From: TPA_inf: Saccharomyces
Taxonomy: Eukaryota
Assembly: GCA_000146045.2 (NCBI GenBank)
Contig: BK006938.2
Location: 128,001-192,000, forward strand
DNA length: 64,000 bases
Direction of reading: 5' to 3'
Made by a program: the position numbers and the translations under genes. The notes beneath the pieces are model-generated. The model was not told where the DNA came from and did not search any database. It saw only the letters and a list, made by a program, of their open reading frames with translations. Positions 1-41,078 of the stretch are shown piece by piece; position 1 is the first letter of the stretch; each line of letters begins with the position of its first letter.

Positions 1-1
1 T

Positions 2-997
2 GTCAAGGAAGTTTCAAAGAGCTACCCAATATCTGAGGGGCCTGAGAGAGCCAACGAATTAGTAGAATCCTATAGAAAGGCTTCAAATAAAGCTTATTTT
101 GAGTGGACTATTGAGGCCAGAGATCTTTCTCTGTTGGGTTCCCATGTTCGTAAAGCTACCTACCAGACTTACGCTCCAATTCTTTATGAGAATGACCACT
201 TTTTCGACTACATGCAAAAAAGTAAGTTTCATCTCACCATTGAAGGTCCAAAAGTACTTGCTTATTTACTTGGTTTATGGATTGGTGATGGATTGTCTGA
301 CAGGGCAACTTTTTCGGTTGATTCCAGAGATACTTCTTTGATGGAACGTGTTACTGAATATGCTGAAAAGTTGAATTTGTGCGCCGAGTATAAGGACAGA
401 AAAGAACCACAAGTTGCCAAAACTGTTAATTTGTACTCTAAAGTTGTCAGAGGTAATGGTATTCGCAATAATCTTAATACTGAGAATCCATTATGGGACG
501 CTATTGTTGGCTTAGGATTCTTGAAGGACGGTGTCAAAAATATTCCTTCTTTCTTGTCTACGGACAATATCGGTACTCGTGAAACATTTCTTGCTGGTCT
601 AATTGATTCTGATGGCTATGTTACTGATGAGCATGGTATTAAAGCAACAATAAAGACAATTCATACTTCTGTCAGAGATGGTTTGGTTTCCCTTGCTCGT
701 TCTTTAGGCTTAGTAGTCTCGGTTAACGCAGAACCTGCTAAGGTTGACATGAATGGCACCAAACATAAAATTAGTTATGCTATTTATATGTCTGGTGGAG
801 ATGTTTTGCTTAACGTTCTTTCGAAGTGTGCCGGCTCTAAAAAATTCAGGCCTGCTCCCGCCGCTGCTTTTGCACGTGAGTGCCGCGGATTTTATTTCGA
901 GTTACAAGAATTGAAGGAAGACGATTATTATGGGATTACTTTATCTGATGATTCTGATCATCAGTTTTTGCTTGCCAACCAGGTTGTCGTCCATAAT
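2..997 (+). mobile_element. VDE: VMA1-derived endonuclease (VDE / PI-SceI) intein, C-terminal portion. It is a LAGLIDADG homing endonuclease and protein-splicing element inserted in frame in VMA1.
   Basis: Two LAGLIDADG blocks are present: LLGLWIGDG (266..292) and LAGLIDSDG (590..616). The C-terminal splice junction ...VVVHN|C has His-Asn at 992..997 and Cys at 998..1000. There is no intervening stop codon. It matches the known S. cerevisiae VMA1 intein. Confidence 0.95.
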
Positions 998-2002
998 TGC
1001 GGAGAAAGAGGTAATGAAATGGCAGAAGTCTTGATGGAATTCCCAGAGTTATATACTGAAATGAGCGGTACTAAAGAACCAATTATGAAGCGTACTACTT
1101 TGGTCGCTAATACATCTAACATGCCGGTTGCAGCCAGAGAAGCTTCTATTTACACTGGTATCACTCTTGCAGAATACTTCAGAGATCAAGGTAAAAATGT
1201 TTCTATGATTGCAGACTCTTCTTCAAGATGGGCTGAAGCTTTGAGAGAAATTTCTGGTCGTTTGGGTGAGATGCCTGCTGATCAAGGTTTCCCAGCTTAT
1301 TTGGGTGCTAAGTTGGCCTCCTTTTACGAAAGAGCCGGTAAAGCTGTTGCTTTAGGTTCCCCAGATCGTACTGGTTCCGTTTCCATCGTTGCTGCCGTTT
1401 CGCCAGCCGGTGGTGATTTCTCAGATCCTGTTACTACTGCTACATTGGGTATCACTCAAGTCTTTTGGGGTTTAGACAAGAAATTGGCTCAAAGAAAGCA
1501 TTTCCCATCTATCAACACATCTGTTTCTTACTCCAAATACACTAATGTCTTGAACAAGTTTTATGATTCCAATTACCCTGAATTTCCTGTTTTAAGAGAT
1601 CGTATGAAGGAAATTCTATCAAACGCTGAAGAATTAGAACAAGTTGTTCAATTAGTTGGTAAATCGGCCTTGTCTGATAGTGATAAGATTACTTTGGATG
1701 TTGCCACTTTAATCAAGGAAGATTTCTTGCAACAAAATGGTTACTCCACTTATGATGCTTTCTGTCCAATTTGGAAGACATTTGATATGATGAGAGCCTT
1801 CATCTCGTATCATGACGAAGCTCAAAAAGCTGTTGCTAATGGTGCCAACTGGTCAAAACTAGCTGACTCTACTGGTGACGTTAAGCATGCCGTTTCTTCA
1901 TCTAAATTTTTTGAACCAAGCAGGGGTGAAAAGGAAGTCCATGGCGAATTCGAAAAATTGTTGAGCACTATGCAAGAAAGATTTGCTGAATCTACCGATT
2001 AA
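2..2002 (+). CDS. VMA1: Vacuolar H+-ATPase catalytic subunit A, 3' part of the gene. The 5' end lies upstream of the window. The frame runs open from base 2. Positions 2..997 encode the C-terminal ~332 residues of the VDE intein and 998..2002 encode the C-extein through the stop codon.
   Basis: The translation reads through ...[51 protein letters not shown]... (intein), then ...[76 protein letters not shown]... (V-ATPase A subunit C-terminal domain). The ORF-track start at 134 is a TTG artefact; there is no stop between 2 and 134 in this frame. Confidence 0.97.
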
Positions 2003-2406
2003 GATATATGTAGCATTTATCTTCTGGTATATTTGTTAGATGTCTTTTCTTCGTATTTCAAAAAATTTATATAGGCGTATGTTAATAAGATAAAAAATAA
2101 TTAAAGGAAATTAACAGATGTACCTCAATGAAATGACACAGTAACATAATACAAGACTTGCCAAGCACAATTACAATGATAAATAACTTTTGTTTTCAAA
2201 AAAACGGACAATTGATTAAACTATGTGAGACATATATAAAGCACTATATAAATAGTAGGCAATGGTTTACACCCCACCGTGAGATTAGTATGCAATTTAG
2301 ATCCATTATGAGGTAGAATAGAAACTAACATGTTAATTCATCAATGACATTACGATACTCTTGAAAGAATTTAAAACAAAATTAGAGTTATTTACTCATA
2401 ATCCGC

Positions 2407-2484
2407 TTATTTGGATCTGGCTCTCACCTTCCGTCTCTTTCTCTTAAGTCTTCTAGTTCTCTTCTTTCTCCACTTGGCTCTCAT
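2407..2484 (-). CDS. RPL41A: Ribosomal 60S subunit protein L41 (25 aa). It is missing from the ORF track because it is too short.
   Basis: The reverse complement of 2407..2484 reads atgagagccaagtggagaaagaagagaactagaagacttaagagaaagagacggaaggtgagagccagatccaaataa, which translates to [25 protein letters not shown]. It is at the expected position between VMA1 and YDL183C. Confidence 0.93.
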
Positions 2485-2870
2485 TTCGATTGAATCGATG
2501 TGGTCTGGTTCTTTTAGTACAAAATGGAACGGATATAAGATAAATGAGAGTTGCTTAGAAGTCCAGTTTTATAGAAGACGAGGTCAGTTTCGTCTTGTTA
2601 AAATATCGTCCATCTGCCATGGGGAAAAGTGAAACTTTCGGGTAGGGTAATGAGGCCAGCCTTGCCTGGGAAAAAGTTAGGGGTCAGTTACTTTTAAGAG
2701 TTCATTGATCGAGAGCGCGTGGAAAAAATTCTAGAAAGAAAGCTATAAAATGTGCGGATGTTTGTATATGTCAAAGGTGTACGGGAGCGCATCAGAAAAG
2801 TACAGTCTAATTTTCGAACGCTCAGGAATACCTGTTATGTATATTTACATGAGATAGTGGACAATCTACA

Positions 2871-3833
2871 TTAAATTTTGTTTTTCTCTTGAGATTTCGA
2901 TTCTTGAAGGATGACTTTGTTCAAGTCGCTTTCTAGTTCATGAACCTCTAAGAAATCTAAGATCAACGGAAGGGTTTTCTTGTTAAGTAGTAATTCTGGT
3001 GCACCTTTTGATTCCTTTTGATTGCCCTGCGTACGGCTGCTGGTCCCACGTTTATATACTTCCGTATATCCCAACAGTTCCCTGAATTCTAAATTTTGTT
3101 TTGAACTTTCCAGTAGACTCTTCAAGTGCTTAGCACCAAGGTAAGCTTTGATATTAACATAAGCTCTATAAGATAGGTAGAACCCTGGAACATTTGGTAT
3201 AAGCGGTATTAAAATTAGAGGAATTGTCAGCGGGAGACCTAAAAGGCAATATAAAGTCCATTTTTTGTGATAAATTAAGCCTTCTTGGTAGAGCTTTTTC
3301 ATTTGTCTCAAGCACTCATCAGGGCTAGAAATTCCAGGGGGATAATACACGTGTAAGGGTTGAGTATCGACCTGTTCTGCCTTTACGGTATAATCTTTCA
3401 ATGTGAGTCGAATCTCTTGGGTCTTATCTTTCTCTCCCTTAATTCTCTTCAATATATAGCTTTCACTTGGTATGGTTAACAGACTATTTTCTGACCAGGG
3501 TGTGCTATTTAACAGAGACTGCACCATGGACACTATTTTTTTATTATACGATTTAGGGGACTTTTTCAGTTTTCTCCAAAGCTTTGCTGATTTCTCAACG
3601 ATCCACTTTTCTGCTTTTAATATTCTAGACTGACTATTAAAGAGATTATCGGTATGCTTATAGTAAATGAATGATTCTTTGTCCGTTATTGGTATCACAG
3701 TCACTTTAACAGGATCATGCAGATATTTTTGGAGTGAAGCCTTTTCAAGTTTTGTTGAATACGCCCTCATTCCGTAGAACAGTCGAGAAGTGGCAGTTAT
3801 ACTAGTTGGCGGTATAAATATTGAACGTATCAT
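2871..3833 (-). CDS. MRX19: YDL183C, a mitochondrial inner-membrane protein of poorly defined function (320 aa).
   Basis: The ORF 2871..3851 starts on a GTG artefact. The first ATG (reverse complement at 3831..3833) gives MIRSIFIPPTSITATSRLFYGMRAYSTKLEK... and 320 aa, the reference length. The position matches YDL183C. Confidence 0.85.
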   Translation of the reverse strand: MIRSIFIPPTSITATSRLFYGMRAYSTKLEKASLQKYLHDPVKVTVIPITDKESFIYYKHTDNLFNSQSRILKAEKWIVEKSAKLWRKLKKSPKSYNKKIVSMVQSLLNSTPWSENSLLTIPSESYILKRIKGEKDKTQEIRLTLKDYTVKAEQVDTQPLHVYYPPGISSPDECLRQMKKLYQEGLIYHKKWTLYCLLGLPLTIPLILIPLIPNVPGFYLSYRAYVNIKAYLGAKHLKSLLESSKQNLEFRELLGYTEVYKRGTSSRTQGNQKESKGAPELLLNKKTLPLILDFLEVHELESDLNKVILQESKSQEKNKI

Positions 3834-4862
3834 CTTTAATCTAAAATACACCGGATGAAGTTTTGGTATTGTGATAAAATGATTCTATCGATGAAGAGCA
3901 ATGATATGGATACTGCTACGTTGAAAAGGAAAAATTTCATGGCTAACTAGTAACTGAAACTGTGCCAGATAGCACACCCTTTAGATACTATCTTGGCACA
4001 ATGCCCGATGCTTACTCCCCGGCGGAGACAGCCGTCAAGTCCATCCATCCAAAAGTGGAGGAAAAACAAGAAAATAAAGCTATCGAACAAGGAGCGTTGA
4101 AGTAAGAAAAACAAACGAAGAACTGAATAAACACAGCCTGCTTCAAATTATGGAAGGAGCTGTTACACATGGTAATTTTCTTATTTTTTTTGATAGATGG
4201 TGGAAAGTGGTAGCGTGGAAGTTGCGGATTATCACGACGTTTTATGGGCTCTAAATCGGTATAAGCTCAACAAATGGTTGAGGGCCGAATAAACGAAAAA
4301 TTATTAGACCATAATTGCTACCAGCTGAAAGATTATCTCATTATAATACGCTTGAAACCCTCTAAAATGTCATTCGTAGTTAAGTACACTTTTTTGATCT
4401 CTCCAAGGTTAGCCGCCCATATAAAAAACTCTAGGAACCAAATTTGGTATACTGCGTGCGCTTGAGATTCAGTTTTTGTGTAAATCGGTTGCTGCAAACT
4501 ATTTATATTAATGTTACATCGATGCAAGATTTTAGCCATGTTCCTAGTTTCTTGTCTATGAGCGTTTACTCAACCGAGACTCTTGTTTGCTATTATCTCG
4601 ATTCGACGAACAAACAGTTCCCTGGGTATTCGAACAAAGCACAGTTGGTGATTTTGTTTGAAACTACAGACGTGCTCTCTTTTACAAAATAAATTGTAGG
4701 AAGTGATCCGCACAGGCAGAGGGAATTACAGATCACGCTCCTCTCTTATGACTAATGCACTCAGCATTTTCTCTTCCTTATAAACTCCGTCCACAGTACC
4801 CGATCAGCTGGCTCATCGTTATTCTAAATTAACTGATGACTGATGTTACGTCTGCGTCAAAT

Positions 4863-4913
4863 TCCGCCGGAATATTGCGTAGTTTTAGTAAGAAAAAAAC
4901 AAATTCCGACGGG
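4863..4913. promoter_or_regulatory. Lys14-type UAS: TCCGCCGGA matches the TCCRNYGGA consensus. A degenerate second copy TCCGACGGG lies 33 bp downstream. They are about 570 and 530 bp upstream of LYS20.
   Basis: The first site is at 4863..4871 (ttCCGCCGGaa, near-palindromic) and the second at 4905..4913. Confidence 0.45.
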
Positions 4914-5436
4914 AACTCTCTGCAAGGAAGTTTAAGCGTGGGTTACTTTGCTAGGTTGAGAAAAAGAATTCTTTAGAGGATCACACGTAGTAAAAGAAAA
5001 AAAAGATCTCTTCGCGCCACTCCCGGTTTCTCTGTGGATACGGCGTTACTAGCGTTGCAAGTGGCAAAAAAATGAGTAATGTCACAATGGCCTGGCCTTG
5101 TCCCACTATCCCTTATTCATGGTTGAAAAATATGACCAAAATTGCTGGGGAATTTTCTCTTCGGTAGTGGACGACGACGACATTAGAGCAATAGGCAATA
5201 ATTTAATTTGCGCTTTAGGTTCTTGCTGACGATGATGCGTGAGTAATATTATTACCAAGTTTTAAGGGCCTCATCGCTGGCCATTTTTTACACCTGCTTA
5301 AATACCCGATGATGATATATATAAATGATATTGGCTGCTTATCGATAAAGTGTATTTGATATGTTCCCGTTTAGTTTATTCTTGTTTCTTATCTACATAA
5401 CAAACAAAGGAAGGACCCTGTATTGTTTTCCTAAAG

Positions 5437-6723
5437 ATGACTGCTGCTAAACCAAATCCATATGCTGCCAAACCGGGCGACTATCTTTCTAATGTAAATA
5501 ATTTCCAGTTAATCGATTCGACGCTGAGAGAAGGTGAACAATTTGCCAACGCATTCTTCGATACTGAAAAAAAGATCGAAATTGCTAGAGCCTTGGACGA
5601 TTTCGGTGTGGACTACATCGAGTTAACCTCACCAGTAGCATCTGAACAATCAAGAAAGGACTGTGAAGCTATATGTAAACTAGGTTTAAAGGCCAAGATC
5701 CTTACACACATTCGTTGTCATATGGATGACGCCAAAGTCGCCGTAGAGACTGGTGTCGACGGTGTCGATGTCGTTATCGGCACCTCCAAATTTTTAAGAC
5801 AATATTCCCACGGTAAGGATATGAACTACATCGCCAAGAGTGCTGTTGAAGTCATTGAATTTGTCAAATCCAAAGGTATTGAAATCAGATTTTCCTCTGA
5901 AGATTCCTTCAGAAGTGATCTCGTTGATCTTTTGAACATTTATAAAACCGTTGACAAGATCGGTGTAAATAGAGTCGGTATTGCCGACACAGTTGGATGT
6001 GCCAACCCAAGACAAGTATATGAACTGATCAGAACTTTGAAGAGTGTTGTTTCATGTGACATCGAATGCCATTTCCACAACGATACTGGTTGTGCCATTG
6101 CAAACGCCTACACTGCTTTGGAAGGTGGTGCCAGATTGATTGACGTCAGTGTACTGGGTATTGGTGAAAGAAACGGTATCACTCCTCTAGGTGGGCTCAT
6201 GGCAAGAATGATTGTTGCCGCACCAGACTATGTCAAGTCCAAATACAAGTTGCACAAGATCAGAGACATTGAAAACCTGGTCGCTGATGCTGTGGAAGTT
6301 AACATTCCATTCAACAACCCTATCACCGGGTTCTGTGCATTCACACATAAAGCAGGTATCCATGCCAAGGCCATTTTGGCTAACCCATCTACCTACGAAA
6401 TCTTGGACCCTCACGATTTCGGTATGAAGAGGTATATCCACTTCGCCAACAGACTAACTGGCTGGAACGCCATCAAAGCCAGAGTCGACCAGTTGAACTT
6501 GAACTTGACGGATGACCAAATCAAGGAAGTTACTGCTAAGATTAAGAAGCTGGGTGATGTCAGATCGCTGAATATCGATGATGTTGACTCTATCATCAAG
6601 AACTTCCACGCAGAGGTCAGCACTCCTCAAGTACTATCTGCAAAAAAGAACAAGAAGAATGACAGCGATGTACCGGAACTGGCCACCATCCCCGCCGCCA
6701 AGCGGACTAAGCCATCCGCCTAA
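5437..6723 (+). CDS. LYS20: Homocitrate synthase isozyme (lysine biosynthesis), 428 aa.
   Basis: [66 protein letters not shown]... is an HMGL-like/IPMS-family fold. ATG at 5437 confirmed. Confidence 0.95.
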
Positions 6724-7178
6724 CGTTCCCAAACCATTACATTATGTTCTTTCACTTATTACATACGATATATAGCATCTACATCTACATATCTAAATGA
6801 TGTTTTTTCCCATCTACTTTGTCCGATACGCATTAAAAGAAGAAGATTTACTCTCCCGTGATGCCGGGCCAATCAGACGCGCGCATTCGCGGCAGAATAA
6901 GGGGAGGCTGCTGCGGGTACCAAATATCCAGATATTCACAATTATGCCAATCAACTGTCTAGTTGCTGACACCCATCGTTTTCCACTGCAACGAGGTTTT
7001 GGGGCTAGAAAAGGCGTTAACAATCGTTAGAGAAGGAGGGGTTCATAACTTGACTTGTTGTATCTTGTTTAAAACTTTCTTTGAATTTGTTCGTGGTTGA
7101 ATTTGTTTTTGCTATCCCAAAGGAGTGCATTTTACACGCATTACTACAGCACACTTTTATACAGTTCCACAATAGAAT

Positions 7179-7895: not shown

Positions 7896-9539
7896 ATGGT
7901 CCGATTAAATCATGCAGCATCATATTTTATGCCTATTTTCTGCTCCACAAGGCCTCACATAGTGATACTTTCTGCGCTGTTTAGTATTTCACTGTTTTCA
8001 CTATTCTATGCGTCGTCCGAATTACTGCTACACCAGTATGATGATCCATTGATGTTCAAACCAAATTCGCAGGACTATTTCAGGACCTTTCTTTTGGGGC
8101 TTTTTTCACCATTTCTTTATTATTTCCTGAAGACCTTTCTATTCAATATAAATCAAAGGTTTTTAATATTGAACCTGATAGTGGATTTTCCTATCAACGA
8201 CGTCTTTATGCTTTTGATACTGATTGGTTTAGCGTACCCTCAGGTGCAAGATCACGAAGGCGGTACGATCAAGCATAAGGAATGTTCTTGGCACATCATT
8301 CCAAGACAAGCCTATATCTTTGGTATATCATGGGCCCTGGGTGAATTCACCATATGCATAATAGGGAATTTGTTTAACTACCAAGAAATCGCCGATCCAA
8401 ACATTAATAGTGGCTTCACACACCAGGAAAGCGCCAACACTTACTGTAACAATAATGATATGAGCCATAACGATGACTGCGGTTGTAGTACAGAATATCG
8501 CCCCAACGTCGTAGACAGAAGTGATATTACGTTGTCCAAATGTATTGAAGTAAGAAATGACTCATCTTCCATATCGAATAACGTATACTCGTCTGAGTAC
8601 CATCCAATCAAACCTCTACGTTCATCGTCATCAACTTATGGCAGCATACGACAGCAACCTCATGAAAATAAGAAGCAGCTGCATGTACCAGATAATTCGC
8701 AGGACGATACAATTATCATGATGAACCCCATCGACAATTCATTAAAGTTGACAACTCTAGATACGGGTGATTTGAGTTTCCCCATAGACGAAGAACAGCC
8801 CATTTTGAAGAAATCTTTTGGTTATACATGGGCAGTTCCTAATGAAAATACACAAAATACTACTAAAAGCTTCACACCGATAAAGAGATTTATTGCATTT
8901 AGCACGGCATACCAGTTGGTCACCGGTTTATTGTTAATGATATTGGTAGTTGGTAGTAATATCATGTTGACAATTGGGGAATCATTGATTCTGTCGATGT
9001 ATTTCGTCTATGTTCGCGGCCATGAAGGATTATTTACTCCCGTGGTGAACTACTTCGGCTCAAGAACCATTTCAAATTTCATCTTATGCGTAATAATTCC
9101 TTTCATATCTCTAAACTTCCTCATCAACACTTCGATATATTTAAGAAGAGAGCTAGACGATTGGTTTAATAATTCACAGGGGGAGTTTGAGGACGACGAC
9201 GAAAATACTATCAGTAAGAGAGTAGCTACAAATCAAGAGTACCAACATCCACTGAGTGCTAATTACATTTCGATGGATAGTCCTGATGTAATAAATAGCA
9301 GCCCGGGTCACTTCGGGATGAATTCAGGCCAGTTGTTAGGTAATACGACGTTATATTATGGTAGTTTAAATGGGGATGATGATGATATGACCAACGACTC
9401 CGCTTTACTAAGATTCTGCAAGAAGCTAGTCAAAAATTGGAGGGCTTTGGCAAGAAATGATTCTTTTGTACTTGGAGTAATGGTTTCTTGGAGTCTTCTT
9501 GTTTTTGTAACGGGAATACTTTCAACAGTTTATATATAG
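7896..9539 (+). CDS. YDL180W, an uncharacterised multi-pass membrane protein (547 aa).
   Basis: ATG at 7896. It has hydrophobic segments at the N-terminus (…IVILSALFSISLFSLFYASS…, …LILNLIVDFPINDVFMLLILIGLAY…) and C-terminus (…LVTGLLLMILVVGSNIMLTIG…, …VLGVMVSWSLLVFVTGILSTVYI), with a Ser/Asn/Asp-rich soluble middle. Position and length match YDL180W. Confidence 0.85.
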   Translation: MVRLNHAASYFMPIFCSTRPHIVILSALFSISLFSLFYASSELLLHQYDDPLMFKPNSQDYFRTFLLGLFSPFLYYFLKTFLFNINQRFLILNLIVDFPINDVFMLLILIGLAYPQVQDHEGGTIKHKECSWHIIPRQAYIFGISWALGEFTICIIGNLFNYQEIADPNINSGFTHQESANTYCNNNDMSHNDDCGCSTEYRPNVVDRSDITLSKCIEVRNDSSSISNNVYSSEYHPIKPLRSSSSTYGSIRQQPHENKKQLHVPDNSQDDTIIMMNPIDNSLKLTTLDTGDLSFPIDEEQPILKKSFGYTWAVPNENTQNTTKSFTPIKRFIAFSTAYQLVTGLLLMILVVGSNIMLTIGESLILSMYFVYVRGHEGLFTPVVNYFGSRTISNFILCVIIPFISLNFLINTSIYLRRELDDWFNNSQGEFEDDDENTISKRVATNQEYQHPLSANYISMDSPDVINSSPGHFGMNSGQLLGNTTLYYGSLNGDDDDMTNDSALLRFCKKLVKNWRALARNDSFVLGVMVSWSLLVFVTGILSTVYI

Positions 9540-9791: not shown

Positions 9792-9929
9792 CAATATGGA
9801 GCTCACACTGTATGCTACAATTTGGCCTCCATTCATAACTGCCAAGATAAAATTTGTTGGCAATATGGAGCTCACACTGTATGCTACAATTTGGCCTCCA
9901 TTCATAACTGCCAAGATAAAATTTGTTGG
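9792..9929. repeat. Perfect tandem duplication of a 69-bp unit (2 full copies plus a 6-bp partial) in the YDL180W-PCL9 intergenic region.
   Basis: caatatggagctcacactgtatgctacaatttggcctccattcataactgccaagataaaatttgttgg occurs at 9792..9860 and identically at 9861..9929, followed by caatat. Confidence 0.95.
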
Positions 9930-9965
9930 CAATATTGAAAATTCTTAAATTAGCGCTGCGCGGAA

Positions 9966-21078: not shown

Positions 21079-21108
21079 AATAACATTCATCAGCAAAATT
21101 AATAAACT

Positions 21109-21116
21109 AAATAAAA

Positions 21117-21167
<51 letters not shown>
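21109..21167. repeat. (AAAT)n tetranucleotide microsatellite, about 13 units, in the convergent PAR32/GLT1 3' intergenic region.
   Basis: ataaaataaataaataaataaataaataaataaataaataaataaataaataat. Confidence 0.95.
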
Positions 21168-21202: not shown

Positions 21203-24200
21203 TTAGACTTGACTAGCTAATTCTTTCAATAGTTTGTAATCACGTTGAACGATACCACCATTACTTGGTAGATACGTAGTGCCGTCCATTAGGAACTTAT
21301 CGACAGAGGCAGCACATTTTCTACCTTCTTGGATGGCCCAGACAATCAAAGATTGCCCTCTTCTACAGTCACCACATGCAAAAGTCTTTCCTCCATCAAT
21401 AGAGTATGAGGAGTCGTCGAGTGTGGCAATCGTACCACGTCTTGTCTTCTTAACTTCGTTATCGTTGCCATTGATCAATTCAGGACCCACGAAACCCATA
21501 GACAACAAAATGATATCGGCTTCAAAGATCTCTTCACTGTTGGGAATTTCTACCATTTGCCATACGCCACTTTGTGACTTCTTCCATTCTACGCGCACAG
21601 TTCTGATGGCAGTGACTTCACCCTCATCGTTACCGATAAATTCCTTGGACAAGATGCAGTATTCACGAGGGTCTCTACCATAATGCTCTTTCACTTCAGC
21701 ATGACCGTAGTCCACTCTCATGACACGCGGCCATTGAGGCCATGGATTGTCTTTGGCACGTTCCACTGGTGGCTCAGGCAACAATTCGAAATTCAAAACT
21801 GATGCTGCACCGTGTCTTACAGATGTACCTAAACAATCGTTACCTGTGTCACCACCACCGACAACAATTACTTTCTTACCTTGGATCTTTTCACGAATGA
21901 TTTCCAGATCTTTGTTCAATAAAGCTTTTGTGTTAGATTCCAACAACTGCATGGCAAAATCAATATTCTTCAATTCACGACCCTTAATAGGTAAGTCACG
22001 TGGAATGGTAGAACCGATAGCATACACTACTGCATTGTGCTTGTTCTTTAGCTCATCCATGCTTATGGTTTTACCAATTTCGGTGTTGGTAACAAAGTCA
22101 ATACCTTCGGCACTCAATAGATCAATACGACGTTGCACTATAGCCTTATCCAACTTCATGTTTGGAATACCATACATCAATAACCCACCACAACGGTCGG
22201 ATCTTTCATAAACAGTGACCGTATGTCCGGCACGGTTCAACATATCAGCACACGCTAAACCTGCTGGACCAGAACCAATGACACCCACTGTAAAGCCAGT
22301 GCGTGTACTTGGTGGACAAGGCTTAATCCATCCTTCCTTGAAAGCATTGTCAATGATAATTCTTTCAACCGATTTTATGCCGACTGGGTCTTCAATAATA
22401 CCTAGTGTACAAGCTCCCTCACAGGGTGCTGGACATACTCTTCCAGTGAATTCTGGGAAATTGTTTGTCTCTAGCAATTTGTCCAGTGCCAACTTCCATT
22501 GGTTCTTGAATAACAATTCATTAAACTTGGGGATAATGTTAGATAGGGGACAACCGGTATCAGATAAACAGAATGGTGTACCACAATCCATACATCTCGC
22601 AGTTTGATATTTGGCATCCTTCTTGGTAATAGGGTTAGTAAATTCTTTCCAGTCATTAACTCTGGTTCTTGGATCTCTGTGTGTCTCATGACGACGTTTG
22701 TGGATCATAAAACCACGTGTTTTTTCAATCCTTTCGCTATTCTTCTCTAGCTGTTTGGAATCTGGAACTGCATCTTCTAAATCAACAACCTTAGGCTCCT
22801 TCAAAGTGGCCTTATTTGAAATAGTAATACTCTTCTTTTTTTCTTGCTCTTTAGCTTTTTGATTAGCAATCAATAGAGTATTGACTTCGTCATCAACTTC
22901 TTGGTTCGATCTAAACTTCTTTAAGTATTCTGAAGTTGCCTTAGCCTTTGCCTTGGCAGCTTCTGCTTTCTCCTTCAACAAAACTTTCTTATAATCAGTT
23001 GGAATGACTTTAACGAAATCTTTCAAATAATGGTTGAAATTACCGAGAATCCTGGCTGCTAGATCAGATTGTGTGTAGTTCCAATGCTCCTGGATCAAAT
23101 TCTTAACAAACGCAATCTCGACCGGGTCACATAATGATTCTAACTCAACAGTATCTTTGTTAATCTTTCCAACAAAATCGTCGTAATCGGAAGTTAAACA
23201 GTATGCAATACCACCAGTAGCACCAGAGAAGGCGTTTAGGGATTCCATTTGTGATAAGACAATGGCACGACCACCAGTCATATACTCAAAGGCATTGTTA
23301 CCCTTAATTCTCTCAACAACGATGGTGGCACCAGAGTTTCTGACACCGAAACGCTCACCGGCACTACCTGAAATGAATGCAGTACCAGAAGTAGCACCAT
23401 AGAAACAAGTGTTACCAACAATTACATTTTCATCACTCTTGAATTTAGAATCCTTTGGTGGTTTAATGACAATAATACCACCGGATAAACCTTTACCAAC
23501 ATAATCATTAGCATCACCATTCAAGATAAAAGTGATACCAGAAGCTAGGAAAGCACCAAAAGATTGACCCGCTGAACCTTCTATGTTAACGACAACGGTG
23601 TCCTTTGGCAAACCATCTTCACCAAATTTCTTCGAGACTCTGTAAGATAAAGTAGAACCGAGTGCACGATCAGTATTGATTATAGAGGCGTCAATATTCA
23701 CTGGTAAGCCACGATCCAAAGTAACTTCAGCCTCATCGATTAACTTATTATCTAGACGGGTGTGGAGTTTGTGGTCTTGTTTCTTAGTGAACTTGGTTGG
23801 AACACCTGGACGAATAACATGTGCTGGGGTCAAAATAGGAGATAAATCGATATTTATGGCTTTGGCATTTACGTCGTCCCTTTTCTTTAATTTTTCAGAA
23901 TGACCCACCATTTCGTCAATGGTACGGAATCCTAACTTGGCCATGATTTGTCTTAAATCTTGGATCAAGTAATAGAAGAAGTTGATAACATGTTCGGGCT
24001 GACCCTTAAACTTACTTCTCAAATATGGATCTTGTGTGGCAATACCAACAGCACAAGAGTTCAAGTGACATCTTCTTAACATAACACAACCCATAGCAAT
24101 TAATGGAACTGTTGCCAAGGTAAAAGATTCTGCCCCTAATAAAACTGCAACAGCAATATCAAACCCAGTTCTCAATTGACCATCGGTTTGGACAACAACA

Positions 24201-27200
24201 TTACGTCTTAAATCATTCAAGACTAAAGTCTGGTGAGTTTCAGCTAGACCTAATTCCCATGGCAAACCCGCATATTTGACACTCGTCCATCTTGCAGCAC
24301 CTGTACCACCATCATGACCAGAAACTAAGATATGATCGGCTTTAGCCTTAGCTACACCAGAGGCAACAATACCAACACCAACTTCGGAAACCAACTTTAC
24401 AGAAATTCCCGCTCTTGGATTAGCACATTTCAAATCATAAATCAGTTGTTTCAAATCTTCAATGGAATAAATATCGTGATGAGGAGGAGGAGAGATTAAC
24501 CCAACATTAGGGGTGGAGTGCCTGGTTTTTGCGATATCCTTAGACACTTTGTGGGCTGGTAGTTCACCACCTTCACCCGGCTTAGCACCCTGAGCAATCT
24601 TAATTTGGATTTCATCAGCATCTGACAAGTAGTATGAAGTTACACCGAATCTAGCGGAAGCAACTTGTTTGATAGCAGATCTCATAGTATCACCGTTTTC
24701 TTGAACAGCAGAACGTTCTGCGTCTTCACCACCTTCACCACAATTGGATTTGGCCCCTAAACGATTCATGGCAATAGCCAATGTAGAGTGAGCTTCCATA
24801 GAAATAGAACCATAAGACATTGCACCTGACGCAAATCTTCTGGCAATTTCAGTCCATGGTTCAACTTGTTCTAGAGGGATACTGACAGAATTTTCAAAAT
24901 CTAATTCTAACAGTCCTCTTAGTGTACAGTCTCTAATTGCTTCCATTTCCTTCTTTACATATAATTGCCAAGAGACATCATTTTTGTTTCTGACAGTATC
25001 TTGTAACGAAGCAATTGCGGTTGGTTCGTTGACGTGTTTGTAACCACCATCCCTAAAGTGGTATTCACCACTTTCTGGTAAGTTAACAGATTTACTAATG
25101 GTTTGTCTGGATGGATAACCACGCTCATGTAAAGAAAAGGCATCTTGAGCCAAATACTCGAAAGTTACACCTCTAATTCTGGAAGAAGTACCTGTGAAAC
25201 ACAAATCAACAATAGAGTTATCTAAACCTAGGGCTTCAAAAATTTGAGCACCTTTGTAGGATGCTAGAGTGGAGATACCCATTTTAGACATAACCTTCAA
25301 GATACCTGCATCAATAGCGTGCTTGTAATTTTCTAGTATTTGCCCTTCCTCAAGTGTATCATTGTCATTGTTGACATTACGAAGTAGACCTTCTCTATTC
25401 ATTCTGACCAAAGTTTCCATGGCTAAGTATGGATAAACACCATCACAACCATAACCTAGTAGGACACAGAAATGGTGAATTTCTCTGGCTTCACCTGTTT
25501 CCAAAATCAAAGCAACTTGGGAACGCTGCTTGTTTCTGATTAGGTGATGATGAATACATGAAATTGCAATCAAAGAGGAGATGGAAACACGGTTGGCACC
25601 CATTTTCCTGTCAGTAATTATTAAGATCTTTTTACCATCATCAATTGCTTCGCTCGCTAACTTAGTGATTTTATCAATTGTGTCGGTATAGCCCAATAGA
25701 CCCTCACTCTTGTCGAATGTGATATCAATTTCTGCTACAGACCATGATGGGTAAGCAGCTTCAATGTTTTTCAAAGCTTGGAACTCATTCCAATGCAAAA
25801 TAGGAGATTTCAATAATAAACGATCACATTGAGATGAATGCATTTCCAAAAGGTTGCCTTGAGGTCCGACATAACATTCTAACGACATAACATTTGCTTC
25901 ACGAATTGGGTCAATTGGAGGATTGGTCACTTGAGCAAACAATTGTCTGAAATAATCATAAAGTAAGACAGGATTTTCATTTAAACAAGCCAGTGGCGCA
26001 TCGTTACCCATCGAACCTAAAGCTTCTTTACCTGTTAAAGCCATTGGAGTTAACAGAAATGTGACTTGTTCGAAGGTATAACCATTGGCCAATAGACGTG
26101 GGTCACTTTGAACTTTCAAAGACAATGAATCCTGTGATATAAATTCTTTAGGAACCAAATTAGCGGTTTTTGATAACAAGTCGTCTAACTTGATGACTTT
26201 GGATAACCAAGACTTAAAATCTTGTCTTTTTGAGATTTGAGATTTTAACTTTTTAGTATCGACCATTTCACCCAATTGAGTATCCACTAGGAATAAATCA
26301 CCTGGCTTCAGTTTACCTTTTTGAACAACCAATGAATTTTCGATAGGAATGACACCTACCTCTGAAGCACAGATAACTCTGTCATCACTAGTGATGTAAT
26401 AACGACAAGGTCTTAAACCATTTCTATCCAATATAGCACCACAGTAACGTCCATCAGTGAAAGTTAACAAAGCTGGACCATCCCAAGGTTCCATCAGACA
26501 TGCAGCCCAGTCGTACCATGCTTTTAGGTCAGAATCCATATCCTTATGATACGCTTCAGGAACCATCATCATAACAGCTTCAGGTAGAGATAATGTGCCA
26601 TTAATAGTCAATAGTTCTAAAACGTTATCCAATGCAGCTGAATCAGAACCACCTTCTTCGATAATTGGGTATAGTTTGTCTAACTCATCTTTGAAAGTTG
26701 CTGAATTCATCACACCTTCTCTGGAGCGCATCCAATTCTTGTTACCTCTTAAGGTGTTAATTTCACCATTATGAGCTAGCCAACGTAAAGGTTGAGCTCT
26801 ATCCCAAGAGGGGAAAGTATTAGTGGAAAATCTTGAATGGACCAACGCCATGTGGGATTTGAAATGCGCATTAGTCAAGTCGGGATAGTAGTTATACACT
26901 TGAGCTGGCGTCAATTGACCCTTGTAAACAATGGTGGTATTGTTTAGGGAACAAACATAGAACCAGTTTTCCAGTCCTATTTGAAGAGAGGCCTCCTTCC
27001 TTAAAAGATACAATTGAGTTCTAAATTTAGTTTCATTAAACTCCGGTTGTTTTTCATCATACAATGGAACCAATAATGGCTGTAGAATAGTAGGTTCACG
27101 AGATAATGCAACGTCTCCTAAAATAGTAGAATCTACGGGGACGTTTCTCCAACCTAATACGGATAAGTTGAAGGATGCAGCTAAATCCTCGAAAATCTTC

Positions 27201-27640
27201 TGACACTTAATTAAATTTTTCTTGTTATTTTTTTCGTTCTTCTTGAAGAAGACGTTACCTACGGCGTATTTGCCCATCTCAGGTATGTCTAGATCAAGAT
27301 CTAACTTGAATTCTCTTTTCATAAATTCGTGAGGAATACCTAGCAGAATACCGGCACCGTCACCGTTCCCATCAGATGAGACGGCACCACGATGTGTCAT
27401 ATTCACTAAAAGATATCTAGCGTCAGTAACAATCTTGTGAGACTGTTCACCATGCTTATTTGCTACGAAACCGACACCACAAGCGTCATGTTCATAATCA
27501 GGGTCGTAAAGTCCTCGTTTGTCCGGAATCACATTTGCCCAAGATTTATGAAGATGGTGTTCATCGTTATAGTTTTGAATTGTCCCACCTTCGTAAGCTT
27601 CTTCCAATGGATCGAAATTGTCTGATTTCAACACTGGCAT
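21203..27640 (-). CDS. GLT1: NADH-dependent glutamate synthase (GOGAT), 2145 aa, with the alpha- and beta-like modules fused in one polypeptide.
   Basis: MPVLKSDNFDPLEEAYEGG…HDACGVGFVAN is an Ntn-type class II amidotransferase. FMN/Fe-S central domains follow, and the C-terminus has …GSGPAGLACADMLNRAGHTVTVYERSDRCGG…, an NAD(P)H-binding small-subunit-like module. ATG (reverse complement 27638..27640) confirmed. Confidence 0.96.
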   Translation of the reverse strand: MPVLKSDNFDPLEEAYEGGTIQNYNDEHHLHKSWANVIPDKRGLYDPDYEHDACGVGFVANKHGEQSHKIVTDARYLLVNMTHRGAVSSDGNGDGAGILLGIPHEFMKREFKLDLDLDIPEMGKYAVGNVFFKKNEKNNKKNLIKCQKIFEDLAASFNLSVLGWRNVPVDSTILGDVALSREPTILQPLLVPLYDEKQPEFNETKFRTQLYLLRKEASLQIGLENWFYVCSLNNTTIVYKGQLTPAQVYNYYPDLTNAHFKSHMALVHSRFSTNTFPSWDRAQPLRWLAHNGEINTLRGNKNWMRSREGVMNSATFKDELDKLYPIIEEGGSDSAALDNVLELLTINGTLSLPEAVMMMVPEAYHKDMDSDLKAWYDWAACLMEPWDGPALLTFTDGRYCGAILDRNGLRPCRYYITSDDRVICASEVGVIPIENSLVVQKGKLKPGDLFLVDTQLGEMVDTKKLKSQISKRQDFKSWLSKVIKLDDLLSKTANLVPKEFISQDSLSLKVQSDPRLLANGYTFEQVTFLLTPMALTGKEALGSMGNDAPLACLNENPVLLYDYFRQLFAQVTNPPIDPIREANVMSLECYVGPQGNLLEMHSSQCDRLLLKSPILHWNEFQALKNIEAAYPSWSVAEIDITFDKSEGLLGYTDTIDKITKLASEAIDDGKKILIITDRKMGANRVSISSLIAISCIHHHLIRNKQRSQVALILETGEAREIHHFCVLLGYGCDGVYPYLAMETLVRMNREGLLRNVNNDNDTLEEGQILENYKHAIDAGILKVMSKMGISTLASYKGAQIFEALGLDNSIVDLCFTGTSSRIRGVTFEYLAQDAFSLHERGYPSRQTISKSVNLPESGEYHFRDGGYKHVNEPTAIASLQDTVRNKNDVSWQLYVKKEMEAIRDCTLRGLLELDFENSVSIPLEQVEPWTEIARRFASGAMSYGSISMEAHSTLAIAMNRLGAKSNCGEGGEDAERSAVQENGDTMRSAIKQVASARFGVTSYYLSDADEIQIKIAQGAKPGEGGELPAHKVSKDIAKTRHSTPNVGLISPPPHHDIYSIEDLKQLIYDLKCANPRAGISVKLVSEVGVGIVASGVAKAKADHILVSGHDGGTGAARWTSVKYAGLPWELGLAETHQTLVLNDLRRNVVVQTDGQLRTGFDIAVAVLLGAESFTLATVPLIAMGCVMLRRCHLNSCAVGIATQDPYLRSKFKGQPEHVINFFYYLIQDLRQIMAKLGFRTIDEMVGHSEKLKKRDDVNAKAINIDLSPILTPAHVIRPGVPTKFTKKQDHKLHTRLDNKLIDEAEVTLDRGLPVNIDASIINTDRALGSTLSYRVSKKFGEDGLPKDTVVVNIEGSAGQSFGAFLASGITFILNGDANDYVGKGLSGGIIVIKPPKDSKFKSDENVIVGNTCFYGATSGTAFISGSAGERFGVRNSGATIVVERIKGNNAFEYMTGGRAIVLSQMESLNAFSGATGGIAYCLTSDYDDFVGKINKDTVELESLCDPVEIAFVKNLIQEHWNYTQSDLAARILGNFNHYLKDFVKVIPTDYKKVLLKEKAEAAKAKAKATSEYLKKFRSNQEVDDEVNTLLIANQKAKEQEKKKSITISNKATLKEPKVVDLEDAVPDSKQLEKNSERIEKTRGFMIHKRRHETHRDPRTRVNDWKEFTNPITKKDAKYQTARCMDCGTPFCLSDTGCPLSNIIPKFNELLFKNQWKLALDKLLETNNFPEFTGRVCPAPCEGACTLGIIEDPVGIKSVERIIIDNAFKEGWIKPCPPSTRTGFTVGVIGSGPAGLACADMLNRAGHTVTVYERSDRCGGLLMYGIPNMKLDKAIVQRRIDLLSAEGIDFVTNTEIGKTISMDELKNKHNAVVYAIGSTIPRDLPIKGRELKNIDFAMQLLESNTKALLNKDLEIIREKIQGKKVIVVGGGDTGNDCLGTSVRHGAASVLNFELLPEPPVERAKDNPWPQWPRVMRVDYGHAEVKEHYGRDPREYCILSKEFIGNDEGEVTAIRTVRVEWKKSQSGVWQMVEIPNSEEIFEADIILLSMGFVGPELINGNDNEVKKTRRGTIATLDDSSYSIDGGKTFACGDCRRGQSLIVWAIQEGRKCAASVDKFLMDGTTYLPSNGGIVQRDYKLLKELASQV

Positions 27641-32994: not shown

Positions 32995-35154
32995 CTACCA
33001 ACGTATTGAACTATTAAAACCATTACCGAAAGCGCTATTATCACCAACATTGGAAAAATTAACGTTAGCTTTGTCACTTTTGAACTCGTTAAACGAGCTA
33101 CCATTCCCATCTCCCTCCTTCATTGACTTTGTTGCCATCGATAACGGTGGTGACATAAATTCCATCAAACTAATATCACGACCTTTGTTATCGTTCCCAT
33201 CGGTGCGACCAGCATTGCTACCACCATTAGTATTAACAGAAATATTGTTATTACTGGGAGTACGCGACGCTGGTCCAAATGTTGATGAATCTATGTAATG
33301 ATTGGTTTCACTTGCATCGCCGCTTATTGATTTTGGACCACCACAGCGTAAGCACACTACGTTTTTAGCAAAGTTATGATACGTGCACGTGGAACACTTC
33401 CAATCTCCTGCTCTAAATGGCATGTTGGAGCCACATCCTCCCATACCGATATTGGAATTACAATTATTACTATTGTTACCATTGTTATTATTATTATTAT
33501 TATTGGTATTACTATTACTATTGATACTACCATTATGATGATTGTTATTATGATTGTTATTATGATTGTTATTGTTATTACTGTTGTTCCCATTACCATT
33601 CCCATTACCGTTGATGTTGTTATTAATGTTATATCTATTATTGGTCATATTGTTAATATTATTGTTGTTATTGTTAATATTATTATTATAACGATAATTT
33701 GGGGCTATATTATTATTTCCCGAAAAATGATCCGCTATAATTATCGGCGACCCACTGTTCGATGGTGCCATGTTCAATGAATTTTGTCGCGACAATGGCG
33801 TAATTGCAGGAAAATGAGCTCTATTGTATGTTAAAGCTGCTGGCGTGTTGTTAGCAATCATGTTGAACTCAGGGGCACCATAGGGGTGATTCGCTGCAGT
33901 GTTACTAATATTGCTTGAAGATCCCGAGTTCACGCGATTGTTTAAATTATTTCTACTACTGTTAACATTATTGTTTGAGTTCGCAGTATGTATTTGACTA
34001 TTTGATGGTGCCGGAAAAGAACATCTAAAACATGCAGTACGTCTTTGAAAGTTTGAAAAACCACAAGATGGGCAATTCCAGTCACCTGGTCTTGGTTTGT
34101 TTTTACTTTGAGGGAAAGGCGATAAAATTTCTTGAGCCTTATCGAGTACTCCGGTGGAAGAAGGTTGAAGCTCAAGGACATGTTCCACCACCCTTGGTTG
34201 CTTAGTGTTTGCCAGATTAGATAGGATTGATCTCCCATTCAACGCTAGTACTTCAGTTGCTTCTTCATGTGTTTGGAAGACAACAAATCCTGAGATACTA
34301 TCTTGATCTTCCACATAGGGACTGTTATTTAGACTCCAGTTATTATTAACGTTAGACGTATCTTCTACGATGTTTTTGACAGTCCAAAACCCAACTGGTC
34401 TAACACCATATTGGGTAAACCATGATTCCAACTCACTTTGAGTTGTGTCGGGCGGTAAATTGTTCATGTACAAAATCTTAGATTTCTCTTGCAAAAACGC
34501 TCTAATATCGGTGTGTGAGTCATATGGTTTTGTTAAGACAGATTCCATATCTTCAGGGGAAGTACACTTTTTGTGCAATTGTATTAATATATCCGTTGTC
34601 CTTTTTAAAAGAGAGTATATCTCTGGAACAGAGCCTGCCTCTTCAGTTGGGATTGAAACTTCCAATATTCTAACTATTTCGTCCAAATCCTTCGTATTTT
34701 TGGCTGCATTAATACTAATACTTTTAGTATTACAATTGTTGTTGGAGATTGCTTTCTTTTGTCCCAAAATCTCCGGATGGTTGACACACCATCTATCGAA
34801 TTCCTTCCATAAGTCAAATACTTTCGGATGTTGTAAATAAGAAGTAAGAATAAACCCATCATCTCTCGCTTGACGTGGTAAGGTAACACGGATATGCCAT
34901 GTTGAATACAGGGAAACAAGAACAAAGTCGTCGTTACCAATAACGTCATGAATATCCTTGTCCAATTGCACCATTGCACTCTCCAAACTCTTTGTCGTCC
35001 CGTTTACTTCAATGCTCGGTAAAGAATTGGTCCCATAATGGCATACTAATGTTTCAGCATTCACAATTTGAAATGCTATATTCGCAATGCGACATTGATC
35101 CTTGGGGGTATCTGGCAAATGCGCAACTTGCAGCTCTAGTACCACATAGTGCAT
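32995..35154 (-). CDS. NRP1: Asn-rich RNA-binding protein with an RRM and two RanBP2-type zinc fingers (719 aa).
   Basis: The ATG (reverse complement 35152..35154) gives MHYVVLELQVAHLPDTP…. The RanBP2 fingers are DWNCPSCGFSNFQRRTACFRCSFP and DWKCSTCTYHNFAKNVVCLRCGGP. There is a long poly-N / HNNN region. The 12-codon upstream extension is an artefact. Confidence 0.92.
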   Translation of the reverse strand: MHYVVLELQVAHLPDTPKDQCRIANIAFQIVNAETLVCHYGTNSLPSIEVNGTTKSLESAMVQLDKDIHDVIGNDDFVLVSLYSTWHIRVTLPRQARDDGFILTSYLQHPKVFDLWKEFDRWCVNHPEILGQKKAISNNNCNTKSISINAAKNTKDLDEIVRILEVSIPTEEAGSVPEIYSLLKRTTDILIQLHKKCTSPEDMESVLTKPYDSHTDIRAFLQEKSKILYMNNLPPDTTQSELESWFTQYGVRPVGFWTVKNIVEDTSNVNNNWSLNNSPYVEDQDSISGFVVFQTHEEATEVLALNGRSILSNLANTKQPRVVEHVLELQPSSTGVLDKAQEILSPFPQSKNKPRPGDWNCPSCGFSNFQRRTACFRCSFPAPSNSQIHTANSNNNVNSSRNNLNNRVNSGSSSNISNTAANHPYGAPEFNMIANNTPAALTYNRAHFPAITPLSRQNSLNMAPSNSGSPIIIADHFSGNNNIAPNYRYNNNINNNNNNINNMTNNRYNINNNINGNGNGNGNNSNNNNNHNNNHNNNHHNGSINSNSNTNNNNNNNNGNNSNNCNSNIGMGGCGSNMPFRAGDWKCSTCTYHNFAKNVVCLRCGGPKSISGDASETNHYIDSSTFGPASRTPSNNNISVNTNGGSNAGRTDGNDNKGRDISLMEFMSPPLSMATKSMKEGDGNGSSFNEFKSDKANVNFSNVGDNSAFGNGFNSSIRW
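33430..33720 (-). repeat. NRP1: AAT/AAC-rich coding microsatellite-like region that encodes the poly-Asn prion-like domain of NRP1.
   Basis: The plus strand is dominated by att/gtt triplets (…attgttattattattattattattggtattactattactatt…). It translates on the minus strand to …NNNINNNNNNINN…NGNGNGNGNNSNNNNNHNNNHNNNHHN…NNNNNNNNGNNSNN…. Confidence 0.9.
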
Positions 35155-35448
35155 AATTTCTGTATCAAAAATCACAATAGCAATGCACAATTATCCTAGC
35201 GCTCTTCTTTAGTAATGCTATTTGCATCAAAACCAACTTATTAAACTTGTATGTGTTGAAAAATTTTTCACTTTAAACTTTTCCACTGGGCATCGGCATC
35301 GGAGAATGAAAATATATTACCAAAGTCACATTAAACAAGTACATGACATTACTTAAAGAAAACCCTTTATAATAGGCACTACTATTACTACTGTTACTAA
35401 TTTACAATTATATATGTATATATGTAGATACACAAAGTTATGGAACGC

Positions 35449-39390: not shown

Positions 39391-39713
39391 GGTGAAAAAT
39401 TCCATCAGCCATCTCAAGTGGAGGAACACATCGAAGCGAGCAAAAAGATGACAGAGTTAAACAGCAATAGAACCAGCGGCTGCAGTACGAATTCCTATTG
39501 CAAGTCTTACGGAAGGTTGGTGGGGCCTTATGTTGTTCAAAGTACTTGATTTTGGAAGTATGGTTGTCTGAAATTGTGGCTACGTATAGAGAATCATCCG
39601 GGTAATGATGAAAGTTTCTTTCAATGACAAATAGGAGTTTTAAGAAGTAGAAGAAAGAGCCGTTCGTATGAGTGCCAGGATCAGAAGGAAAGGGAGCAAG
39701 AGGCAGAACAATC

Positions 39714-41078
39714 ATGTCGAAACAATTTGTTAGATCTGCGAAGAATTTGGTGAAAGGGTACTCTTCTACCCAGGTCCTGGTAAGAAATGCAACGTCAAAC
39801 GACAATCATCAAGTGTCCAAGGACTCGTTAATTGAGCTGGCTGAAAAATCATATGATAGCGCAGATTTCTTCGAAATCATGGATATGCTGGACAAAAGAC
39901 TTAACGACAAGGGCAAATACTGGAGGCATATCGCAAAGGCATTGACAGTAATAGATTACTTGATCAGGTTTGGTAGTGAGAATTGTGTTCTTTGGTGTAG
40001 AGAAAATTTATACATCATCAAGACATTGAAGGAGTTCAGGCACGAGGACGATGAGGGCATAGATCAAGGTCAAATCGTTAGGGTCAAAGCAAAAGAATTG
40101 ACTGCATTACTATCTGATGACGAAAGACTGAACGAGGAAAGGAACATGAATATCAAGGGAAGAAACAGGAAAGGAAGAAGAAGAAGGGGAACTGGGCGCA
40201 GTGATGAAAATGACGATGATTTGCAAAGAGCCATTAGTGCTAGCAGGTTGACGGCGGAAGAAGACGAAAGAAGAAGAAAACAGGACGAGGATTATGAAAC
40301 AGCTTTGCAGTTGAGCAAAGAAGAAGAGGAGCTAAAAAGATTGCAAGATTTACAAAGAATGCAACAACAGCAAGGCCAACAACAATTGCAACAACCTATG
40401 TATTATGATATTTTTGGTAACCCAATCACTCCTGAGGAATACGCACAATTTCAATTGCAACAACAGCAACAACAGCAACAACAACAGTTGCAACAACAAC
40501 CAATGTACTACGATGTATTCGGGAATCCTATAACACCCGAAGAACTAGCACAGTTTCAACAACAACAACAACTACAGGAACAACAGTACTTAGCTTCTAT
40601 GCAACAGCAGCAACAGGCAATGTCCAACAATCCATTTGCCAAATCAGAACAGAGCTCAAGTTCACCAAAACGGAACCAACTAGTAGCAGCTTCTTCTCCA
40701 CAGCAACTGCAACAACAAAAACAACAAGAGCCATTGATTCAAAACAGGACAGGCAATCAATCAATGACAGACAAGTATAGTAAACTAAACGAGCTACTAG
40801 CCACAGGAACAGGTATTGATACATTCGGAAATGTAGGGGAGGCTCGTATTCCTGCCCAACATACGAAGACAGGAACATTCATCAATTCTCAAGGAACAGG
40901 ATATAGGCAAGTATCGGATGATCCAAACCACAATCCGTTTTTGAACAGTCAGTATACAGGTTTACCAAGCACTAGCGTCGTACCAACACAAACAGGCTAT
41001 GGCTTTGGTAACCAGTCTCAACAGCAGTCTCAAAATAATGGCTCAAATAACCGGGGATATACTCTAATTGATTTATGA
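39714..41078 (+). CDS. ENT1: Epsin; an ENTH domain followed by UIMs, NPF motifs and a C-terminal clathrin box (454 aa).
   Basis: ATG at 39714 gives MSKQFVRSAKNLVKGYSSTQV…, the ENTH domain. The UIMs are …DLQRAISASRLTAEEDE… and …YETALQLSKEEEE…. There are two NPF motifs. The protein ends …RGYTLIDL. The ORF-track start 39672 is GTG. Confidence 0.94.
   Translation: MSKQFVRSAKNLVKGYSSTQVLVRNATSNDNHQVSKDSLIELAEKSYDSADFFEIMDMLDKRLNDKGKYWRHIAKALTVIDYLIRFGSENCVLWCRENLYIIKTLKEFRHEDDEGIDQGQIVRVKAKELTALLSDDERLNEERNMNIKGRNRKGRRRRGTGRSDENDDDLQRAISASRLTAEEDERRRKQDEDYETALQLSKEEEELKRLQDLQRMQQQQGQQQLQQPMYYDIFGNPITPEEYAQFQLQQQQQQQQQQLQQQPMYYDVFGNPITPEELAQFQQQQQLQEQQYLASMQQQQQAMSNNPFAKSEQSSSSPKRNQLVAASSPQQLQQQKQQEPLIQNRTGNQSMTDKYSKLNELLATGTGIDTFGNVGEARIPAQHTKTGTFINSQGTGYRQVSDDPNHNPFLNSQYTGLPSTSVVPTQTGYGFGNQSQQQSQNNGSNNRGYTLIDL

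Follow-up and report, generated by a model that had tools for sequence, protein, structure and literature searches.

A VMA1 intein (VDE/PI-SceI) lies in frame within the V-ATPase A-subunit gene at the opening of a 64-kb yeast window

Introduction

The 64-kb stretch of DNA analysed here (the window) opens inside a reading frame whose downstream part encodes the catalytic A subunit of the V-type proton ATPase, raising the question of what the first kilobase of that frame encodes. A sequence-only reading proposed that it is not ATPase coding sequence at all, but an in-frame intein, the VMA1 intein, otherwise known as VDE or PI-SceI. This element is the prototype of protein splicing and of intein homing, and has given rise to a commercial meganuclease and to intein-based tools for purification and conditional splicing. 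Its correct annotation keeps a 1-kb insert from passing as ATPase sequence or as an assembly error.

Results

Reading frame and identity of bases 2..2002

A single open frame, identified by direct translation, runs from base 2 through 666 codons to a stop at 2000..2002. Over bases 1..1000 this frame contains no stop codons, and each of the other five contains 12–41, so that nothing else is encoded on either strand of this segment. The features of the frame are as follows:

2..997, + strand: C-terminal 332 codons of the VMA1 intein (residues 123–454), assigned from identity to PI-SceI, Pfam domains and the lack of a counterpart in intein-free A subunits
2..997, + strand: intein part in the window, which covers the last portion of the N-terminal splicing (Hint) lobe, the complete LAGLIDADG endonuclease domain and then the C-terminal splicing lobe
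992..1000, + strand: C-terminal splice junction, with His453 at 992..994, Asn454 at 995..997 and Cys+1 at 998..1000
998..2002, + strand: Vma1 C-extein, precursor residues 738–1071, with the stop codon at 2000..2002, assigned from Pfam domains and 100% identity to 9cop_A

A search of PDB sequences shows the whole 666-residue translation to be 100% identical to residues 406–1071 of 9cop_A (1503.8 bits), the 1071-residue "V-type proton ATPase catalytic subunit A", or Vma1 precursor. Translated residues 1–332 are identical to residues 123–454 of the PI-SceI chains 1dfa, 1vde, 1lws and 1lwt (E = 1.4e-222), with 1um2, 1ef0 and 1jva also matched at 100% identity, which places the start of the window at intein residue 123, base 1 being the last position of codon 122 of the intein. 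The first 122 residues of the intein (its 5' 366 nt) and the N-extein thus lie upstream, outside the window. The mature yeast A-subunit chains, of 616–617 residues, align with the post-junction part only, and the C-extein matches three of them (5bw9_A, 3j9t_A, and 6o7v_A) up to their final residue. The reading of the opening kilobase as an in-frame intein is therefore borne out by its full identity to PI-SceI, and by the absence of any counterpart in intein-free A subunits.

The domain content of the frame is consistent with this assignment, with Pfam matches in the intein part (residues 1–331) to Hom_end (1.3e-65, in two stretches), Hom_end_hint (5.4e-37), and LAGLIDADG_3 (4.5e-08). The Hom_end_hint match spans residues 1–331 around the two Hom_end stretches, as for a Hint splicing fold interrupted by an endonuclease domain. 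After the intein, ATP-synt_ab (1.9e-56, profile positions 43–213 of 213) is followed by ATP-synt_VA_C (1.2e-30), so that the post-junction part comprises the rest of the nucleotide-binding domain together with the C-terminal domain. The frame does continue as the V-ATPase A subunit, as first read; however, it is not the C-terminal domain alone that follows, but also most of the nucleotide-binding domain. Base composition provides no separate evidence that the intein is foreign, since the intein part and the C-extein are alike in GC (0.397 versus 0.405) and GC3 (0.331 versus 0.320).

Homology searching also recovered numerous intein-bearing homologues of other yeast and fungal origin, and a 1071-residue precursor (P0001, a cluster representative) which differs from the window at one residue. 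At precursor residue 948 (window position ~1631), the window, 9cop_A, and intein-free homologues carry Glu and P0001 carries Lys; this is a strain polymorphism within the C-extein.

Boundaries of the insertion

The His-Asn-Cys sequence proposed as the C-terminal splice junction is translated at 992..1000, although the Cys codon (998..1000) is the first codon of the C-extein and does not belong to the intein, which ends at base 997. Alignment of the precursor with two intein-free A subunits found by homology search (P0103 and P0110, each of 617 residues), performed with MAFFT, shows one clean gap across columns 284–737, with the alignment restarting at CGERGNEM. The gap corresponds to an insertion of exactly 454 residues, the length predicted from the sequence, and over the shared half the two proteins are 90–94% identical to the C-extein of the window by BLASTP. 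The insertion occupies the VMA1-a site, just downstream of the P-loop, where it separates Gly283 from Cys284 in the numbering of the mature A subunit.

The same boundary is seen in DNA. An intein-free locus (L003), 95% identical to the window in extein DNA, aligns by blastn from exactly base 998, with nothing in L003 aligned to bases 1..997; the continuous homology to intein-free subunits that would argue against an intein is thus absent. HMMER local alignments to mature A subunits begin 14 residues ahead of the true junction, at query residue 319 instead of 333. This position was rejected as the boundary, being an over-extension of the HMMER alignment, with the exact boundary given by the MAFFT alignment with P0103 and P0110 and by the L003 comparison.

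The N-terminal junction was read in near-identical public contigs and not in the window's own molecule. The contig encoding P0001 (L001) matches window bases 1..7002 at 99.886% identity with no gaps, a second (L002) is 99.959% identical to the window, and in both the precursor gene is complete. In L001 the Cys1 codon of the intein is found 365 nt ahead of window base 1, with IIYVG/CFAKGT as the junction (splice point at the slash) and an intein length of 454 residues, in good agreement with the upstream Cys junction (G/CFAKGT) anticipated at about 370 nt. The DNA upstream of the window is accordingly expected to read ...ATCTATGTCGGG up to the splice point, and TGCTTTGCCAAGGGTACC... beyond it. 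A strain allele deviating within the first 122 intein residues, or in its regulation, in a manner that alters splicing or homing is very improbable.

The junctions also bear on whether the segment might instead belong to an HO/WHO-type gene, encoding an intein-derived endonuclease on its own, a reading that has in its favour that the HO and WHO proteins are the nearest relatives of VDE (PMC7282813). In the window, however, motif G (VVVHN/C) is present, a zinc finger is absent, and the frame runs directly into Vma1. The in-frame extein and the His-Asn/Cys junction rule out such a gene, and we regard this reading as vanishingly unlikely.

Endonuclease motifs and catalytic residues

Both LAGLIDADG motifs proposed for the intein translate exactly as claimed, and each ends in a catalytic Asp (D218 and D326), as the two-motif form of this endonuclease family demands. 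Between them lies Lys301, which we take to be the active-site lysine of the PI-SceI endonuclease. The residues concerned are:

266..292, + strand: first LAGLIDADG motif, LLGLWIGDG, intein residues 211–219, by translation
269..271, + strand: codon for Leu212, site of the L212P substitution (PMC10899782)
287..289, + strand: codon for catalytic Asp218, coordinate by translation, role from PMC1508164
536..538, + strand: codon for Lys301, with Lys found in 98 of 107 intein-bearing homologues
590..616, + strand: second LAGLIDADG motif, LAGLIDSDG, intein residues 319–327, by translation
611..613, + strand: codon for catalytic Asp326, coordinate by translation, role from PMC1508164

Asp-218 and Asp-326 are ligands of the active-site metal, and activity depends critically on both (PMC1508164). 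Published substitutions include L212P, which confers temperature-sensitive splicing, and N454Q, used as a splicing-dead control (PMC10899782).

Conservation across the VMA1 inteins was assessed in an alignment of 107 intein-bearing VMA1 homologues, each of at least 900 residues. The residues C1, H79, N454, and C+1 are invariant (107/107), and H453 is present in all but one (106/107). At the catalytic positions, Asp is found in 34 of the 107 at position 218 and in 51 at position 326, with both positions acidic in ~28, these counts being approximate as they derive from an automatic alignment of a divergent domain. Among the best 45 of the 107, the inteins are ~36–80% identical to the window copy and the exteins 82–93%. 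The combination of invariant splice residues with so few doubly acidic copies fits selection on splicing accompanied by decay of the endonuclease, a pattern known for the family as the "homing cycle", in which splicing is kept by selection and the endonuclease decays (PMC1654191).

With so few homologues acidic at both positions, endonuclease decay is the usual state of the family, and it might be asked whether the window holds a degenerate intein of the kind seen in many other yeasts, with splicing intact and the homing endonuclease dead. The window copy, however, falls within the minority that keep both catalytic Asp residues, retaining Asp218, Asp326, and Lys301. Furthermore, residues 123–454 are 100% identical to the crystallised chains of PI-SceI, a biochemically active enzyme. 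A degenerate element is accordingly very unlikely, and the reading as an intact VMA1 intein is preferred.

The disrupted homing site

The C-extein begins with the right half of a recognition site whose left half precedes the intein and falls outside the window:

998..1024, + strand: right half of the VDE homing (recognition) site that the intein disrupts, TGCGGAGAAAGAGGTAATGAAATGGCA, identified by fusion of the flanks and comparison with L003

When the sequences on either side of the intein in contig L001 are fused, the result is GCCATTATCTATGTCGGGTGCGGAGAAAGAGGTAATGAAATGGCA, which we take to be the PI-SceI recognition sequence. No open paper naming the PI-SceI recognition sequence was found, a full-text search with GGGTGCGGAGAAAGAGG returning only mouse-genotyping papers in which it appears as an unnamed primer. 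The intein-free locus L003 has GCCATTATCTATGTCGGGTGCGGAGAAAGAGGTAATGAAATGGCA in one piece, differing from it by a single synonymous change (A>G) on the C-extein side, 20 nt in. The target is thus the uninterrupted insertion point of the host gene, destroyed by the insertion, with the fused flanks matching the L003 junction bar that one synonymous change. The carrier allele, its site divided by the insertion, escapes cleavage (PMC7282813).

Genomic context and other mobile elements

The VMA intein of S. cerevisiae is common in expression vectors, and engineered derivatives are present in public read assemblies, P0115 being one example, so that an engineered construct or vector contaminant must be weighed against a native locus. 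In the window, however, the native Vma1 C-extein follows the intein in frame, and is itself followed by 62 kb of ordinary yeast chromosomal genes, the window being colinear at 99.886% identity with an assembled contig of 68.8 kb. This genomic context rules out a vector or construct, which we consider extremely improbable, in favour of the native VMA1 intein. P0115 itself, a protein of 584 residues, carries an inserted chitin-binding domain (PF02839) within its endonuclease region, reads VVVQN in place of VVVHN at the C-terminal junction, and has foreign flanks; it is evidently a construct from an expression vector, picked up in sequencing runs.

The gene order presumably corresponds to that of S. 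cerevisiae chromosome IV, from YDL185W to about YDL148C. Pfam analysis of the 30 ORFs of at least 150 residues identified housekeeping families only, including homocitrate synthase, D-lactate dehydrogenases, glutamate synthase, a Zn2Cys6 factor, alcohol dehydrogenase, DNA ligase, ENTH, DEAD-box helicase, kinase, cyclins, a MutS homologue, Sas10, Rpc4, ATG9, and Nop14, and detected no reverse transcriptase, integrase, transposase, or second Hint or endonuclease domain among them. ARAGORN found no tRNA genes, the customary landmarks of Ty insertion in yeast, in the 64-kb window. No Rfam families were found in the window at gathering thresholds, and self-comparison revealed no dispersed repeats. 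LTRs of two elements, Ty1 (delta) and Ty3 (sigma), were compared with the window by blastn and gave chance-level matches of at most 25 nt, a comparison that is weak because the query sequences were approximate. Within the tRNA, Pfam and repeat checks, and the weaker LTR check, the proposal that the window contains no mobile element besides the intein is supported. The glutamate synthase ORF (a GLT1 homologue; 21203..27640, − strand, 2145 residues) contains no Hint or endonuclease domain by Pfam; the glutamate synthase of some other fungi hosts the GLT intein (PMC5784728).

Several further features of the window were observed. Just downstream of VMA1, on the opposite strand, lies an ORF of 25 codons (2410..2484, − strand), too short for ORF listings, the peptide of which we take to be ribosomal protein L41. 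A perfect tandem duplication of a 69-bp unit (9792..9935, 2.1 copies, 100% matches) is intergenic, lying between an ORF ending at 9539 and a cyclin-domain ORF starting at 10291. An imperfect 105-bp repeat (40361..40585, 2.2 copies, 77% matches), rich in CAA/CAG and located within the ENTH-domain ORF at 39672..41078, probably encodes a Gln-rich repeat. An (AAAT)n tract of 17.5 copies (21096..21167) separates two convergent ORFs, and an array of ATTATT hexamers (33463..33580) lies within the ORF at 32995..35190.

Discussion

Bases 2..997 almost certainly belong to the VMA1 intein (VDE/PI-SceI) of Saccharomyces cerevisiae, a splicing and homing element of which they make up the 3' three-quarters, and no evidence contradicting this reading was found. 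The present comparisons directly show what the element is and where it ends, that its visible splice and catalytic residues are intact, that the insertion measures exactly 454 residues, and that the target site is split. The element was described from the outset as well characterised and not novel, and rightly so, as it is the textbook VMA1 intein, identical to the characterised PI-SceI. The finding is already known and represents no new biology.

What the element does in the cell is drawn from the literature on the identical protein, from which splicing chemistry, cleavage, and super-Mendelian meiotic homing would be expected of this copy. A 454-codon selfish element sits in frame within the gene encoding the vacuolar H+-ATPase catalytic A subunit. 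This gene would be transcribed and translated as one precursor of 1071 residues, from which the Hint-fold domain would then excise itself. In the splicing reaction, Cys1 would form a thioester, which Cys+1 (998..1000) would attack, and cyclisation of Asn454 (995..997), aided by His453, would free the intein. The host halves would be joined by a peptide bond to give the A subunit of 617 residues. Splicing in vivo finds indirect support in the yeast A-subunit PDB chains of 616–617 residues, which lack the intein.

The freed 50-kDa intein would act as a monomeric, double-LAGLIDADG endonuclease. In a heterozygous diploid undergoing meiosis, it would cut the uninterrupted junction of ~31 bp in the intein-free VMA1 allele, with repair from the intein-bearing homologue copying the element into the cut allele, this being homing. 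This proposal follows the behaviour described for VDE, which cuts empty VMA1 alleles to leave a 3' overhang of 4 nt and homes in meiosis of heterozygous diploids (PMC7282813).

Comparison with known systems

The closest known system is the Sce VMA1 intein itself (S. cerevisiae TFP1/VMA1; 1VDE, 1DFA, 1LWS, 1LWT, 1UM2, 1EF0, and 1JVA, with the precursor as 9COP), to which the window copy is identical over 332 residues. The host gene, insertion point, and junctions are all shared, with no difference in the visible part.

The VMA1-a inteins of Zygosaccharomyces bailii, Zygotorulaspora, Lachancea, Vanderwaltozyma, Torulaspora, Candida/Scheffersomyces, Kluyveromyces, Nakaseomyces, and other yeasts share the insertion site, the splice residues C1/H79/N454/C+1, and the Pfam architecture. 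Unlike the window copy, most of the VMA1-a inteins of other yeasts lack one or both catalytic Asp residues.

Outside the inteins, HO and WHO are the closest relatives of VDE, sharing its Hint-plus-LAGLIDADG architecture and its logic of break and repair (PMC7282813). They differ in being free-standing genes that have no exteins, possess a zinc finger, and lack motif G (PMC7282813), whereas the element in the window is an intein within VMA1. The fungal Prp8 and GLT1 inteins are likewise nuclear and occupy conserved sites of essential proteins; however, they reside in other host genes and are reported to show less than 40% similarity to the VMA1 inteins (PMC5784728). The VMA1 element was the first intein of any kind to be discovered (PMC5784728).
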